Assembly: GCA_934613415.1 (NCBI GenBank)
Contig: CAKTSY010000005.1
Coordinates: forward strand, 90,001-122,000
Reading direction: 5' to 3'
Source: an uncultured Opitutales bacterium
Lineage (GTDB): Bacteria > Verrucomicrobiota > Verrucomicrobiia > Opitutales > Intestinicryptomonadaceae
Length of the DNA: 32,000 nt
The notes under the pieces are model-generated. The model was given only the letters and a program-made list of their open reading frames with translations, was not told the origin of the DNA and searched no databases. Every line of letters starts with the position of its first letter. The first letter of the stretch is position 1. The translations under genes were made by a program, and so were the position numbers. Below are positions 7,456-10,761 of the stretch, piece by piece.

Positions 7456-10400
7456 ATGCGGGGGTGGAAATTTGTCTATGTTGACGCAAAACTGCGCAAA
7501 ATAGAAGCGCCTTCGGGGCAATATATAAATTTTACATATGCAAACGGCAAGTTGGCTTCTGTTGAACAACGCGGTAGAGCGTTTATATCGTTAAAATATA
7601 ATGAAGATAAATTGCTTTCAGAAATCCTGATAAACGGAGTATCCAACAAATTTGTTTTCATAGACGGCAAGGCGCAAATATTGCCGGAGACGCTTGCAGG
7701 CAAGGAAGAGTATATAGAGTCCAAGTTTTTAAGCAAAATTGGACGTGATGGCTTAAACCCATTAGAATTTTCATACGATAACGCAGGCTATCTTATACAA
7801 ATAAAGCGGGGCAACTATGTTGACAATATATCAGTGGAGCATGAGAATCTTGCGCAGCGCAAAGACTACTTAAAGAAGGTGGCGGCGGCAAAGAAAGCAA
7901 AGAAAAGCGTAAATAATATAACAAAGGAAGCGGTCGCCGGCAGGATACTCAAAGATTCAACTTACAATTATTCATATCCGTCAAACAGGTTCGGCAATGT
8001 TGTGCTTACGAATAAGCGCGGGGAACTTGCCAAATACGAATTTGACTCCCAGCGCGGCATAGCAAAATACACGGATTTTTCAGGTAAAGAAACAACAACG
8101 TATTATTTCATGCGCTACGATGTTGCCTACAACGGCAAAGTGCGCCAAATAGTTGACGGGCGCAAGCGGGTGCTTGCGAGCTACCGCTACGATAAGGATA
8201 CCGGAAAAATTACAAGGTACCGCGACAAGGCAAAAAACGACATAAACTTCAAATACGACAGCCGCGGTAACCTTGTGTTAATCAGCAAGCGCGGCGCCGA
8301 TGAGGATAGCTCCCTGCCTGTGCGCAGTTTCTCGTACAACAAGGGCAATCTAAAGCCGGTAAAGGTTAACGAACTGGACGAAACAGGTGAAGTCGTAAGA
8401 ACAACTTCAATACAGTACGACAGCGAATTCCGCCCCGTATACATAGACGACGGAAGAAATACCTTGGAAATATCGTATAATTTTTATGGTTATCCATCAA
8501 AGACGGTGGATAGCTTTGGGAGAGAAACAATTTTTACCTACGACGTATACAACCGCCAAATTTCAAGGGAGCGCAATGGGATTATTTCTTATACCGAATA
8601 CGACAAACTCGGGTTCCCGTATAAAAGCTATTCTAAATTTGAGGGAGAAACGCTTTCCTCCATTGATATTTCTTACGACAAAAACGGTTCTACCGTATCG
8701 TATAAGGACCAAGACGGTCTTGAGAAAAGGTATGAGCGCGATGAGTTTGGTCGGATCGCAAAGGAAATATTCCCGGATTCAACAGAAGTTGGATACGAAT
8801 ACGATGTAGTCGGAAAGCTTAGCAAGGTTATAGATCAGAATGGCCATGAAATAAAGTTTGTTTGGAACAAATACGGTTTGGATTATAGAAGAACCGCGGT
8901 AGGTCAAATAACACAAAATGTTTACGACCAATACGGCAGGCTTTCCAAGGTTGATTCTAAGTATGAAAAAGGCTCCGTAGACCGCTCCCTCTGCTACCGA
9001 TATGACGATATGGATAGACTATCCTCCATATCCTACGGAGCTTCCGAAAATGAAAAATTTACATACGATACTTGGGGCAAGCTCGTAGAAAAGTCAAAAA
9101 ATGGGGTAGTTTCCAAATTTAAATACGACTATTTTGGAAGGCTTGTAGAAAAGCTTGAAGGTGAAACGTTCACCAAATACGCCTACGACAATTACGGCAA
9201 ACGCCTTAGTCGCATAACAACCAAGGGCGGTGAGATTCTTGACGAATACAACACCTACGACAAGTTTGGCAGGCTGGTAAAAACCCAGTCAAACGGCAAA
9301 ACTGTAGAATATATATACAACAAGAAAAATCAACTTGTTGAACAAATTATAGACGGAAATAAAGTTATCTTTGAATATACAAAACTTGGTCAGCTTGCTG
9401 GAAAAACTTTGTTTGATAAAGACGGGAAACCTCTTTCCGAGCTTAAATATTTTTACTCAAAGAGCGGCAAATTAACCTCGCGCCTTGCCAACGGCAAACT
9501 GCAGGAATACAAGTACGATGCAAAGAATCAGCTTCTTGCAGTAATAGATATGGAAAGTAAAAGCGCCGTAGAAGAATATGTCTACGATGCAAGCGGCAAT
9601 ATCTTAAAAAAGACGGTTAACGGGAAGACCACAACCTATACATATGACGCCGCAAACCAGCTTGCAAATAGCGTAAGCCCCGACGGGAAAATTACCGACT
9701 ATGTGTATGACGCAGCCGGTAGACTTGTAAAAGAGGGAGAAAAAACCTACGAGTACGGTTGGTTGGACAAGGTAATGAGAGTTGCCGAAGATGGAAAAGA
9801 GCTTGCGCACTTTGAATATCACAATAATAACCAGCTTGCGAAAGCCATACGCGAAAGCGGGGTGGAGACATTCGAGTGGGACGGTTTGGCTCTAATAGAA
9901 CGCAACGGCGTAAAATACATAAACGAACCCCACGCAGGCGGCGGCAACCCCATTCTGGCGACAACCTCCGCGCCGAATGTAAACTCACTAACTTCGCCAT
10001 CCCAATCCCAAACAATCTTTACCGATATGCTCGGTACAAGTTTGGGAACTGTAAAAAATAATGCCTATTCGGAAATTGAAAAAACCGCATTCGGAAATTT
10101 ATTTTCGGAATCCGCCCAACTAGCGAAATCCCTTTCAAGCGCCAATACTTTCTTTACAGGTAAACCCTATGTTGAAGACTTGGGCTATGTATTTCTCTTG
10201 CGCAATTATCGTGCCGACATGGGTAAATGGCTCTCCCAAGACCTCATAGGTTACCCCGATGGTTGGAATGACCTAGCCTATTGTAATAACCATATTTTAG
10301 AATGCGTTGATTACAATGGATTATGGACCGTTCAAATTGGTGTTACTCTTTCTGGAGGGTCTCTACTAGGAGGCAGTATAAGTTTTGGTATTGCAATAGG

Positions 10401-10761
10401 GCATAGCACAGAATCTGGATATACAGCAGGTTTTTATAGTTCGGCTAGTGGTGGTATGGATGCAGGTTATTCTATTGGAGCATCTATAACTGGTACCCAT
10501 ACTGGATATGGATCCATAGATGTATTGTCCGGAACTGCGGTTTCTGTCGGAGGTTCTTTAGGTTTAAAATTGGGAGCGGGATTCAATATTGGCGGAGAAG
10601 CAAATATTCCAAGCGAAGCTAAAACATTTGATCCATTTGGATATTCAATTAATGTAGGATTTTCAACAGGTGTGCCGGTAGAAATTCATTCTATGATTAC
10701 AGAAACAGTAATACATAAACTGATTGATACTGGGGGCACGGTCACTTCTATAAAAGAGTAA
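7456..10761 (+). CDS. Rhs/YD-repeat polymorphic toxin (repeat shell, core tail, variable Gly/Ser-rich C-terminal domain)
   Basis: Dozens of YD repeats (YRYDKDTGKITRY, FKYDSRGNLVLI, FKYDYFGRLVEK, YTYDAANQLANS, YVYDAAGRLVKEG). Rhs core tail FTGKPYVEDLGYVFLLRNYRADMGKWLSQDLIGYPDGWNDLAYCNNHILECVDYNGLW ends at 10326. The variable C-terminal domain spans 10327-10758. Confidence 0.95.
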   Translation: MRGWKFVYVDAKLRKIEAPSGQYINFTYANGKLASVEQRGRAFISLKYNEDKLLSEILINGVSNKFVFIDGKAQILPETLAGKEEYIESKFLSKIGRDGLNPLEFSYDNAGYLIQIKRGNYVDNISVEHENLAQRKDYLKKVAAAKKAKKSVNNITKEAVAGRILKDSTYNYSYPSNRFGNVVLTNKRGELAKYEFDSQRGIAKYTDFSGKETTTYYFMRYDVAYNGKVRQIVDGRKRVLASYRYDKDTGKITRYRDKAKNDINFKYDSRGNLVLISKRGADEDSSLPVRSFSYNKGNLKPVKVNELDETGEVVRTTSIQYDSEFRPVYIDDGRNTLEISYNFYGYPSKTVDSFGRETIFTYDVYNRQISRERNGIISYTEYDKLGFPYKSYSKFEGETLSSIDISYDKNGSTVSYKDQDGLEKRYERDEFGRIAKEIFPDSTEVGYEYDVVGKLSKVIDQNGHEIKFVWNKYGLDYRRTAVGQITQNVYDQYGRLSKVDSKYEKGSVDRSLCYRYDDMDRLSSISYGASENEKFTYDTWGKLVEKSKNGVVSKFKYDYFGRLVEKLEGETFTKYAYDNYGKRLSRITTKGGEILDEYNTYDKFGRLVKTQSNGKTVEYIYNKKNQLVEQIIDGNKVIFEYTKLGQLAGKTLFDKDGKPLSELKYFYSKSGKLTSRLANGKLQEYKYDAKNQLLAVIDMESKSAVEEYVYDASGNILKKTVNGKTTTYTYDAANQLANSVSPDGKITDYVYDAAGRLVKEGEKTYEYGWLDKVMRVAEDGKELAHFEYHNNNQLAKAIRESGVETFEWDGLALIERNGVKYINEPHAGGGNPILATTSAPNVNSLTSPSQSQTIFTDMLGTSLGTVKNNAYSEIEKTAFGNLFSESAQLAKSLSSANTFFTGKPYVEDLGYVFLLRNYRADMGKWLSQDLIGYPDGWNDLAYCNNHILECVDYNGLWTVQIGVTLSGGSLLGGSISFGIAIGHSTESGYTAGFYSSASGGMDAGYSIGASITGTHTGYGSIDVLSGTAVSVGGSLGLKLGAGFNIGGEANIPSEAKTFDPFGYSINVGFSTGVPVEIHSMITETVIHKLIDTGGTVTSIKE
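9718..10283. repeat. Rhs core-tail direct repeat, copy A (in the main rhs gene)
   Basis: Aligns with 11126-11631. The block 9745-9843 differs from 11153-11251 at 2 of 99 positions. A second high-identity block runs from 10153 to about 10270 and matches 11501 to about 11618. Indels lie in the middle. Confidence 0.9.

Follow-up and report, generated by a model that had tools for sequence, protein, structure and literature searches.

A human-gut Opitutales bacterium encodes an Rhs toxin whose variable C-terminal domain (CT) is a member of a so far undescribed family of all-β, glycine-rich and nearly uncharged domains. The CT probably kills rival bacteria by inserting into their cytoplasmic membrane as a β-type ionophore or pore, which would make it a functional analogue of Tse5-CT, Tse4 and Ntox25. 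The family has two alternative immunity types, a small protein with two transmembrane (TM) helices or a PH-like protein. The toxin gene and its neighbours lie in the window, the whole stretch of 32,000 nucleotides that was analysed, as follows:

6976..7434, plus strand: N-terminal piece of the Rhs gene, with a Sec-type signal peptide (MLASVMKALLKFLLVMVISFTSVSAQQ) and a weak DUF6531-like start, stopping at the TGA 7432..7434.
7456..10323, plus strand: Rhs/YD-repeat shell with Rhs-associated core (PF05593, TIGR01643, TIGR03696), ending in VDYNGL.
10324..10761, plus strand: C-terminal toxin domain, 145 aa from W957 to E1101 plus the stop, Gly/Ser/Thr-rich and nearly uncharged, with eight predicted hairpin-connected β-strands.
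10767..11096, plus strand: candidate cognate immunity protein, 109 aa, PH-like, with seven strands and a C-terminal helix, no signal peptide and no TM helix.
11111..11761, plus strand: orphan Rhs C-terminal module, repeating the end of the main gene's core and then carrying a short different tail (TIGR03696, E=3.7e-9).
12989..13324, plus strand: second, orphan PH-like immunity paralogue, 111 aa (BLASTP E=2e-5 to 10767..11096), with the common motif GGLxxG...PFA.

Judged by its sequence, the carrier is an Rhs polymorphic toxin: it combines YD/RHS repeats, a core with a DPxGL-type junction, a small downstream immunity gene and orphan modules nearby. The shell is matched by the Pfam model PF05593 (RHS_repeat, E=8e-44, 7 stretches) and by the NCBIfam model TIGR01643 (E=1e-37), while TIGR03696, the Rhs-associated core, covers residues 878-956 with 34.4 bits against a cutoff of 32.5. 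This core region is a putative aspartyl autoprotease plug. Because the core model ends at residue 956, the start of the CT is placed at 10324/10327. The ORF 7456..10761 (plus strand) reads ...ECVDYNGLW/TVQIGVTLSGG...TSIKE up to its stop codon at 10759..10761; the junction is VDYNGL/W, and relatives show DPxGLW at the same point. The upstream piece (6976..7434) shares the frame of this ORF, and the in-frame TGA between them aligns with a Trp in an uninterrupted homologue (P0017). The reading frame from export signal to toxin is thus interrupted in the window, and with this premature TGA in the carrier gene the window's copy may not be deployed. No secretion-system genes are found within the window.

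The original prediction described a Gly/Ser-rich domain after DYNGLW, and both the quoted sequence and the composition proved accurate. The CT (10327..10758) contains 20.1% Gly, as compared to 8.0% in the Rhs core, 13.9% Ser and 10.4% Thr (Ser and Thr together 24%), and no Arg. Asp, Glu, Lys and Arg add up to 9.5% of the CT and to 28.6% of the core; the CT is acidic, with a net charge of -6. An alternation of hydrophobic and small polar residues, as in β-strands, had also been noticed, and it is strongly non-random: against 1000 shuffles, the hydrophobic moment reaches z=+5.7 at 180 degrees and z=+5.0 at 170 degrees, and z at 180 degrees is at least 2 in 24/27 family members.

The nested glycine zipper read into the same sequence is marginal by comparison. 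GxxxG occurs 10 times where 5.6 are expected (p=0.02), small-xxx-small 31 times where 22.5 are expected (p=0.003) and small-xxx-small-xxx-small 18 times where 8.6 are expected (p=0.001); the spacings G.G and G..G are depleted. The mild enrichment of GxxxG and small-xxx-small would agree with a helical glycine-zipper toxin that refolds in the membrane to GxxxG-packed helices, as compared with EsxX, CDI ionophores and the Tde1 translocation motif, and Tse4 was itself at first read as a helical glycine zipper (PMC11630599). Several features nevertheless make such a helical toxin very improbable here. The full GxxxGxxxG pattern is not enriched (2 observed, 1.0 expected, p=0.28), and the helical moment at 100 degrees is z=+0.2 in the same shuffling. 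The CT holds no hydrophobic window of TM-helix grade on the Kyte-Doolittle scale, the 19-residue maximum being 1.46 (family median 1.12). The search for Pfam glycine-zipper families suggested in the original prediction, run as an HMM scan, lists none of Gly-zipper_Omp/OmpA/YMGG, Rick_17kDa_Anti or Bacteriocin_IIc at E<=1 in 27/27 CT members, nor does NCBIfam give any, and the AlphaFold2 model is all-β. The glycine-zipper framing is therefore not supported.

Word-indexed homologue searches are weak on this low-complexity domain (2 and 9 matches), and a search of the genome contigs with the CT gave no match; an exhaustive representative search exposed a family of ~37 cluster representatives. Its members are carried on Rhs shells in gut Verrucomicrobiota and other lineages. 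They always form the extreme C-terminus after a DPxGL-type Rhs junction, on different Rhs lineages. The structure prediction that had been proposed was run with AlphaFold2 and gives, with a pLDDT of 85 and a pTM of 0.74, an all-β domain of eight strands of 10-18 residues joined as hairpins. Family-wide, seven of the eight strands have one face of 43-87% Gly, Ser, Thr or Ala and another that is 44-74% hydrophobic. In six of those seven, hydrophobic residues make up at most 7% of the small-residue face (24% in strand 3); charged residues stay at or below 5% in five of them and rise to 14-19% in strands 4 and 6, there on one face. Charges, again family-wide, are found only in the C-tail and in loops 2-3, 4-5 and 6-7 (23-48% Asp, Glu, Lys or Arg), and turns 1-2, 3-4 and 7-8 always consist of 2 residues, of which 0-2% are charged. 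The CT thus displays dyad-repeat amphipathic strands of bilayer-spanning length, whose short, uncharged turns lie opposite the charged loops. Such a cis/trans polarity of charge is typical of membrane β-barrels and of the stems of pore formers.

The AlphaFold2 monomer itself is not a recognisable barrel, and uncharged, alternating strands rich in Gly, Ser and Ala can also stack in cross-β or silk-like fashion. Both points would suit a membrane or surface toxin that forms no pore, acting by amyloid-like, Gly-rich β-aggregation or by blocking an essential inner-membrane protein. The Caulobacter Cdz bacteriocins (CdzC/CdzD) have been likened to the CT in this respect; they are reportedly glycine-zipper proteins that kill by contact, with a membrane protein as immunity. 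We consider this reading quite unlikely. Unlike low-complexity aggregators, the CT keeps to a set length and to constant turn lengths and is confidently predicted as a single fold; it is encapsulated as one copy in the Rhs shell, and the polarised charge pattern better fits transmembrane insertion.

Database searches assign neither toxin nor immunity to a described family. Scans of the CT, the immunity proteins and 27 aligned CT members with Pfam, NCBIfam and PADLOC find no family. The HMM matches are all sub-threshold and all to membrane β-barrel families, namely the DNAJC11 barrel, DUF2715, DUF3575 and BamA. Sequence searches of the PDB with the single CT and with a family profile return spurious nanobody and BamA matches at E>0.01. 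Foldseek comparison of the CT model with the PDB and BFVD gives nothing significant (best TMq <=0.31), neither a solved barrel or pore nor a soluble enzyme fold. The claim that the CT is a β-strand-like module and not enzyme-like agrees with these searches, in which no enzyme family or fold is matched.

The gene that follows the CT differs among relatives. At 8/8 informative loci outside the PH-type clades, all in distant relatives, it encodes a protein of 92-127 aa with two TM helices. A K/R-rich loop lies between these helices in seven of the eight (six complete; L066 by homology to L064), and in the remaining one (L059) the helices are close together and a K/R-rich tail follows. These two-TM proteins have almost no periplasmic exposure, and none matches Imm17, a two-TM immunity family (Zhang et al. 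2012). In six lineages, including that of the window, the next gene instead encodes a soluble PH-like protein, and the pair of CT and PH-like protein recurs at loci L001, L061-L063 and L072/L073. Once, at L077, such a PH-like domain continues into C-terminal TM helices. Among the loci seen, each lineage has one type or the other.

The window's immunity protein (10767..11096) begins 5 nt past the stop codon of the CT, and GC drops to 26-28% across its gene. It had been noted to lack an obvious TM helix, and no hydrophobic window of TM-helix strength is indeed found in it. AlphaFold2 (pLDDT 79, pTM 0.71) places strands at residues 7-14, 23-33, 37-44, 47-54, 58-65, 70-76 and 84-88 and a helix at 92-106. 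Its best Foldseek matches in the PDB are PH, PTB and GLUE folds (TMq 0.55-0.65), and nearly all of the 50 matches listed are PH-like, with probabilities of 0.99-1.00. The Pfam model bPH_7 matches one of eight members of this immunity family (E=0.0021), the window protein being without a match. The dN/dS of the PH-like protein is 0.14. An immunity protein free of TM helices was rightly called atypical for a pore former; the anomaly is real, and it is explained by a PH-like domain that is one of two immunity types and is once fused to TM helices.

Among possible functions of the CT, action on a membrane has the best support, because relatives carry two-TM immunity genes and because the strands are amphipathic and essentially uncharged. 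Of the membrane permeabilisation originally proposed, it is the membrane target that these data support; pore formation is the step that we infer from them.

One polar cluster stands out in the nearly uncharged strands (numbering from the G of GLW as 1):

E94 10597..10599, E122 10681..10683, H124 10687..10689 and T130 10705..10707, plus strand: conserved cluster of the CT.

In alignment A1, E122 is conserved at 93% and H124 and T130 at 100%; position 94 is charged (Glu or Asp) in 90% of aligned members. All four sit towards one end of the sheet, on a common strand face. Such near-invariant residues could mark an active site, which counts against a pore or ionophore, as does the soluble, cytoplasmic immunity protein of the window, which is also the norm for enzymatic toxins.

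PagL and PagP are eight-stranded barrel enzymes. The CT might likewise be a small all-β hydrolase or a modifier of lipids or the cell envelope, possibly embedded in the membrane, with the Glu/His/Thr cluster as an active site blocked by the PH-like protein. The conservation and clustering of the four residues speak for such an enzyme, as does the soluble cytoplasmic immunity usual among enzymatic toxins (Zhang et al. 2012, PMC3482391). The seemingly invariant H124 is a Tyr, however, in the full CT of L073, which is 82% identical, evolves under purifying selection (dN/dS 0.15) and keeps its immunity gene; an enzyme signature is therefore not upheld. Members also differ at position 122, with Ser in one of them, and at position 94, with Asp or Thr in several. 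Unlike soluble enzymes, the window's CT lacks Arg and carries almost no charge on either strand face; no enzyme is matched by HMM or fold, and most relatives pair with two-TM proteins that are hardly exposed to the periplasm. An enzymatic CT is thus unlikely. Specific catalytic E/H/T arrangements (RNase T1/barnase-like, M23 peptidase, PagL-like triad) were considered and put aside, given the missing Arg, the near-zero charge, H124Y and HMM and fold searches that found no match.

A β-type ionophore or pore might work as follows. The Rhs autoprotease would free the CT after ...NGL, and its four amphipathic β-hairpins would enter the cytoplasmic membrane of the target. The hydrophobic face of the strands would contact lipid, and the Gly/Ser/Thr face, with the cluster E94/E122/H124/T130/Q6, would line a lumen or an interface between subunits. 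The way through the bilayer would be led by the three short turns, uncharged and of two residues each, with the charged loops and both termini remaining on the entry side. The outcome would be an ion-conducting, β-barrel-like pore, monomeric or oligomeric, and the loss of membrane potential. Immunity would come from the cytoplasmic side, on or within the inner membrane. Most lineages would rely on the small two-TM protein with its K/R-rich cytoplasmic loop, and the window's lineage on a PH-like domain, which probably binds a stretch of the toxin that stays exposed; the clade-specific C-tail ...GGxxxSIxE may be that stretch. Membrane insertion, its topology and the target membrane are, like this immunity mechanism, predictions. 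An outer-membrane target is considered less probable, since the immunity proteins of all types are placed in the cytoplasm or at the cytoplasmic membrane. β-Barrels are not known from bacterial inner membranes, which counts against the ionophore reading.

It is possible, if doubtful, that the family forms a new class of self-inserting β-barrel ionophores unrelated to Tse4 and Ntox25. Such a toxin would be an eight-stranded or multiple-of-four-hairpin barrel, oligomeric in the latter case, with a lumen held open by an invariant Gly/Ser lining and a Glu/Glu/His gate, working in the cytoplasmic membrane and neutralised from its cytoplasmic face by a two-TM or PH-like protein. If so, the PH-like protein would be the first immunity protein of PH fold to counter a membrane toxin. 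To our knowledge, nearly all characterised membrane-targeting interbacterial effectors are α-helical, and what is known of the β-type ionophores Tse4 and Ntox25 comes solely from models and electrophysiology. An independent all-β family would offer a compact system of ~145 aa for β-hairpin insertion into an energised inner membrane and for neutralisation from the cytoplasmic side. It also fills an annotation gap, as Pfam and NCBIfam lack models for the toxin and for both immunity types.

The stem hairpins of β-pore-forming toxins and the barrels of OmpX, OmpA and PagL resemble the CT in their dyad-repeat strands, their Gly/Ser/Thr-rich polar face, their tight turns opposed to charged loops and the ~145 residues spent on eight strands. 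The CT differs from them in having no soluble pre-pore scaffold domain, in its presumed cytoplasmic-membrane target and in giving no significant structural match.

Tse5-CT of P. aeruginosa Tse5 (PA2684) is a pore former encapsulated by Rhs that inserts into membranes and depolarises cells, and its immunity protein Tsi5 has two predicted TM regions (PMC9637101, PMC10684867). The CT shares with it the ~15 kDa cargo in an Rhs shell, the putative release by a C-terminal aspartyl autoprotease after ...GL and the absence of an enzymatic signature, and the two-TM pattern of Tsi5 is matched by the genes beside eight CT relatives. A search of PDB chains gives no sequence match between the two. Tse5-CT is predicted to be α-helical, with TM and amphipathic helices, whereas the CT is all-β; Tse5 has a PAAR-like N-terminus (T6SS), whereas the window's Rhs has a Sec signal peptide; and Tsi5 has two TM regions, whereas the window's immunity protein is soluble and PH-like.

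EsxX of the S. aureus T7SS depolarises membranes and is neutralised by two unrelated immunity types, soluble cytoplasmic and integral membrane, ExiAB and ExiCD (PMC12744356). As in the CT family, a Gly-rich C-terminal toxin is thus met by soluble or membrane immunity, and this precedent, in which both can neutralise a depolarising toxin, accounts for the TM-less immunity protein of the window. EsxX is, however, a helical glycine-zipper LXG protein from a monoderm, whereas the CT is an all-β Rhs cargo; its immunity types are encoded together, whereas those of the CT family are apart in the loci seen, and ExiAB is not reported as a PH-like fold.

Tse4 (PA2774) and Ntox25 are glycine-rich, have no enzymatic signature, dissipate the membrane potential and are modelled by AlphaFold2 as mostly-β "tapered β-barrels" (PMC11630599). 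Alignment of the CT family to Tse4 with hhalign gives a probability of 0.1%, with Tse4 rebuilt from the S2 Data peptides (PMC12169545) in a partly inferred order; the Pfam model of Ntox25 matches none of 27 CT members, and the family consensus lacks the Ntox25 motif FGPY (PMC3482391). The carriers differ (Hcp-bound for Tse4, CdiA for Ntox25, Rhs for the CT), and Tse4 is basic (pI 9.5) whereas the CT is acidic. The CT family is thus not detectably homologous to Tse5-CT, Tse4 or Ntox25 and would be analogous to them in function only; being glycine-rich, mostly-β and non-enzymatic as well, Tse4 and Ntox25 provide the closest analogy for an all-β ionophore in interbacterial competition.

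The match of the Rhs-associated core model TIGR03696 to the window Rhs protein stops at residue 956, so the core ends in ...ECVDYNGL and the variable C-terminal toxin domain (CT) extends from W957 to E1101. The coordinates of the original prediction agree with this boundary and with the ORF. The features of this locus are the following:

6976..7434, + strand: 152-aa ORF, N-terminal Rhs piece with a Sec signal peptide
7456..10761, + strand: Rhs/YD-repeat protein, 1101 aa (RHS_repeat E=8e-44, YD_repeat_2x E=1e-37)
10324 (W957) to E1101, stop codon 10759..10761, + strand: CT, downstream of the TIGR03696 end
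10767..11096, + strand: candidate immunity gene

The Rhs gene is split into 6976..7434 and 7456..10761 by an in-frame TGA (7432..7434), probably a TGG-to-TGA nonsense mutation. Since this codon aligns with a Trp (NGNW) of the uninterrupted homologue P0017, and the 152-aa ORF is called separately in another metagenome too (L003), the window copy may be a recent pseudogene. The window derives from an uncultured Opitutales (Verrucomicrobiota) bacterium of the human gut: its IOR alpha subunit shares 99% identity with that of MAG SUG3736 and 98% with that of a Hadza MAG. It contains no secretion-system genes.

The CT is rich in Gly (20.1%), Ser (13.9%) and Thr (10.4%) and devoid of Arg; D+E+K+R amount to 9.5%, compared to 28.6% in the Rhs core, in which Gly is 8.0%. 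The β-like alternation that had been claimed from the sequence is real and strong: the period-2 hydrophobic moment reaches z=+5.7 (1000 shuffles), as compared to z=+0.2 for the helical 100 degree moment. The glycine zipper claimed alongside it is marginal and a wrong description, as GxxxG is modestly enriched (10 observed vs 5.6 expected, p=0.02), GxxxGxxxG is not (2 vs 1.0, p=0.28), and no 19-residue window of the CT attains the hydrophobicity of a TM helix (maximum Kyte-Doolittle 1.46, family median 1.12).

An exhaustive HMMER search with the CT over 1.84 billion cluster representatives yielded, with a limit of E≤1e-3, 37 proteins. Of these, six reach E≤1e-10 and two are repetitive false positives; a word-indexed search returned near-identical copies only. 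In all remaining full-length matches the domain forms the extreme C-terminus and directly follows the Rhs junction, for which the consensus is DPxGLW|TxQIG. Different Rhs lineages are represented among the carriers; one carrier, of 1265 aa, is homologous to the window protein, and another is a 1787-aa Rhs that also contains Peptidase_C39 and MAM domains. In an alignment of 27 members, numbered from the G of GLW, four glycines, H124 and T130 are invariant, P120 and E122 are near-invariant, and E94 lies in a GGExNIP motif. None of the Pfam, NCBIfam and PADLOC models, including the Gly-zipper families, Bacteriocin_IIc and Ntox25, matches any family member. The sub-threshold matches are all membrane β-barrel families (DNAJC11 barrel, E=0.013; DUF2715, E=0.031; DUF3575, E=0.047), and a PDB search gave a sub-threshold BamA match (E about 2). 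The CT belongs to no named family; the kind in which it would be placed, membrane-targeting polymorphic-toxin cargo, is already known.

AlphaFold2, supplied with this alignment, predicts eight strands of 10-18 residues arranged as successive hairpins; the 4-5 loop contains a short helix (pLDDT 85.1, pTM 0.74). Mapping the alignment onto the predicted strands reveals, in seven of the eight, a small face with 43-87% Gly/Ser/Thr/Ala and an opposite face with 44-74% hydrophobic residues. On the small face, hydrophobic residues are ≤7% in six of these seven strands (24% in strand 3); charged residues do not exceed 5% in five of the seven, and strands 4 and 6 have one face on which they make up 14-19%. 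Every conserved glycine, together with Q6, Y40, E94, E122, H124 and T130, lies on the small/polar face. Turns 1-2, 3-4 and 7-8 have a constant length of two residues and 0-2% charge. In the C-terminal tail and in loops 2-3, 4-5 and 6-7, 23-48% of the residues are charged; the tail and loop 6-7 also accommodate inserts as long as about 30 residues. As modelled, these short uncharged "trans" turns and long charged "cis" loops, with both termini on the same side, correspond to the architecture of a transmembrane β-barrel or a pore-former stem; such a charge-polarised strand arrangement would be highly atypical of a soluble enzyme.

Action by catalysis is less likely for the same domain, given the lack of Arg, the near absence of charge, the absence of any enzyme match and the substitutions at H124, E122 and E94. 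One member has Ser in place of E122, and several have Asp or Thr in place of E94. H124 is replaced by Tyr in the otherwise intact CT of locus L073, which is 82% identical to the window CT and retains its immunity partner; dN/dS between window and L073 is 0.15 for the CT and 0.14 for the immunity gene, both being under purifying selection in this comparison. Across the sequences seen, the glycines and T130 alone are truly invariant.

The immunity genes are the most informative line of evidence on the CT. In eight distant-relative loci (L058, L059, L060, which is partial, L064, L065, L066, L067 and L069), the product of the gene directly downstream of the CT is 92-127 aa long and has two hydrophobic helices. 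Leaving L059 aside, the six complete proteins carry 8-17 Lys/Arg in the loop between these helices and have termini of 0-10 residues; the positive-inside rule predicts a cytoplasmic location for this loop. In L059 the helices are close together and are followed by a K/R-rich C-terminal tail. The assignment of the two-TM proteins to Imm17 was rejected, as they do not match Pfam Imm17. Those of L064, L066 and L067 have a motif in common in the loop, ...GPG/GPF...F(R)xFPY(L/I)YNN..., match neither Imm17 nor other models, and constitute a distinct family.

Six lineages (the window clade, L072/L073, L074 with P0008, L075 with P0017, L076 with P0005 and L077 with P0007) possess a soluble protein of 104-120 aa that bears a GGLRxG...(Y/W)PFA motif. 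The AF2 model of the window's copy of this protein (pLDDT 79, pTM 0.71) comprises seven strands and a C-terminal helix. Nearly all its listed Foldseek matches in the PDB are PH-like (PH, PTB, GLUE), the best listed having a TMq of 0.55-0.65, with listed probabilities of 0.99-1.00; one family member matches Pfam bPH_7 (E=0.002). In L077 (3363..3986), the PH-like domain continues into hydrophobic TM helices at its C-terminus, a fusion that physically ties the soluble immunity type to the membrane. The two-TM, PH-like and fused PH-TM proteins as found thus place every immunity type either at or within the cytoplasmic membrane or in the cytosol, and none is periplasmic. PH-type partners pair with CT clades having the tail ...GGxxxS(I/V)xE and two-TM partners with other tails; this may reflect common descent or a PH-binding epitope. 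The L072/L073 CTs are 78-82% identical to the window CT, and Tyr occupies both the His124 and His133 positions in L073 1..711, L072 and P0002 (EIYYM...IYKL).

The CT is thus likely a membrane toxin, as originally proposed, and the label "glycine zipper" is not retained in view of the marginal motifs and the all-strand model. We lean, with moderate confidence, towards a membrane-inserting β-type ionophore. The Rhs aspartyl autoprotease would cut after ...NGL and release the CT, whose four hairpins would enter the target cytoplasmic membrane, tight turns first. The hydrophobic face would be oriented toward the lipid, and the Gly/Ser/Thr face, with its E/E/H/T/Q cluster, would line a lumen or an inter-subunit interface; ions would then leak and the membrane potential would be lost. 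The two-TM immunity proteins might intercept the toxin inside the bilayer, and the PH-like protein might bind, on the cytoplasmic side, an exposed part of the toxin, either ahead of export or once insertion has occurred.

The array continues downstream with three features:

11111..11761: orphan Rhs CT module, downstream of the main Rhs/immunity pair
12113..12712: protein of 199 aa, TM helix at its N-terminus, after the orphan module
12989..13324: orphan paralogue of the PH-like immunity protein (E=2e-5 to 10767..11096), without adjacent toxin

The orphan module repeats the core end (...EGKKTYEYGWLDKVMRVAEDGKEL...), followed by a short, different tail after DLYGA; the 199-aa protein, which has no Pfam match, may be its immunity protein. 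GC drops to 26-28% across the window immunity gene, which is usual for such cassettes. To note, GC is 26-30% at both 10750..11200 (immunity gene) and 12100..12700 (199-aa protein gene) vs 40-50% in flanking genes. An 87-aa ORF (12717..12980) precedes the orphan paralogue and duplicates part of a 303-aa protein (13357..14268), sharing ...YW(E/Q)P(Q/E)KWSGKAL...; this region looks like a recombination scar ending the Rhs array. In other samples (L061, 3796..4770; L063, 2337..3389), different orphan Rhs CTs come after this CT-immunity cassette, and an HELKH motif occurs in one of them; the toxin array is thus shuffled at the strain level.

Among known systems, Tse5 is cleaved after L1168, its CT beginning at I1169 (PMC10684867, PMC9637101). 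Tse5-CT sets a precedent for a pore former that is encapsulated by an Rhs shell and countered by a two-TM immunity protein, although it is predicted to be helical, unlike the window CT (PMC9637101). The closest functional analogues are Tse4 and Ntox25, glycine-rich depolarising toxins whose AlphaFold2 models are tapered β-barrels (PMC11630599). The Ntox25 match and FGPY motif are not found in the CT family, and hhalign of the family profile gave a probability of 0.1% against a Tse4 sequence assembled from S2 Data peptides of PMC12169545, in partly inferred order. Finally, the lack of an obvious TM helix in the window immunity protein had been called atypical for immunity to a pore former; this objection is removed by EsxX, a membrane-depolarising toxin that has immunity proteins of both the soluble and the membrane type (PMC12744356).
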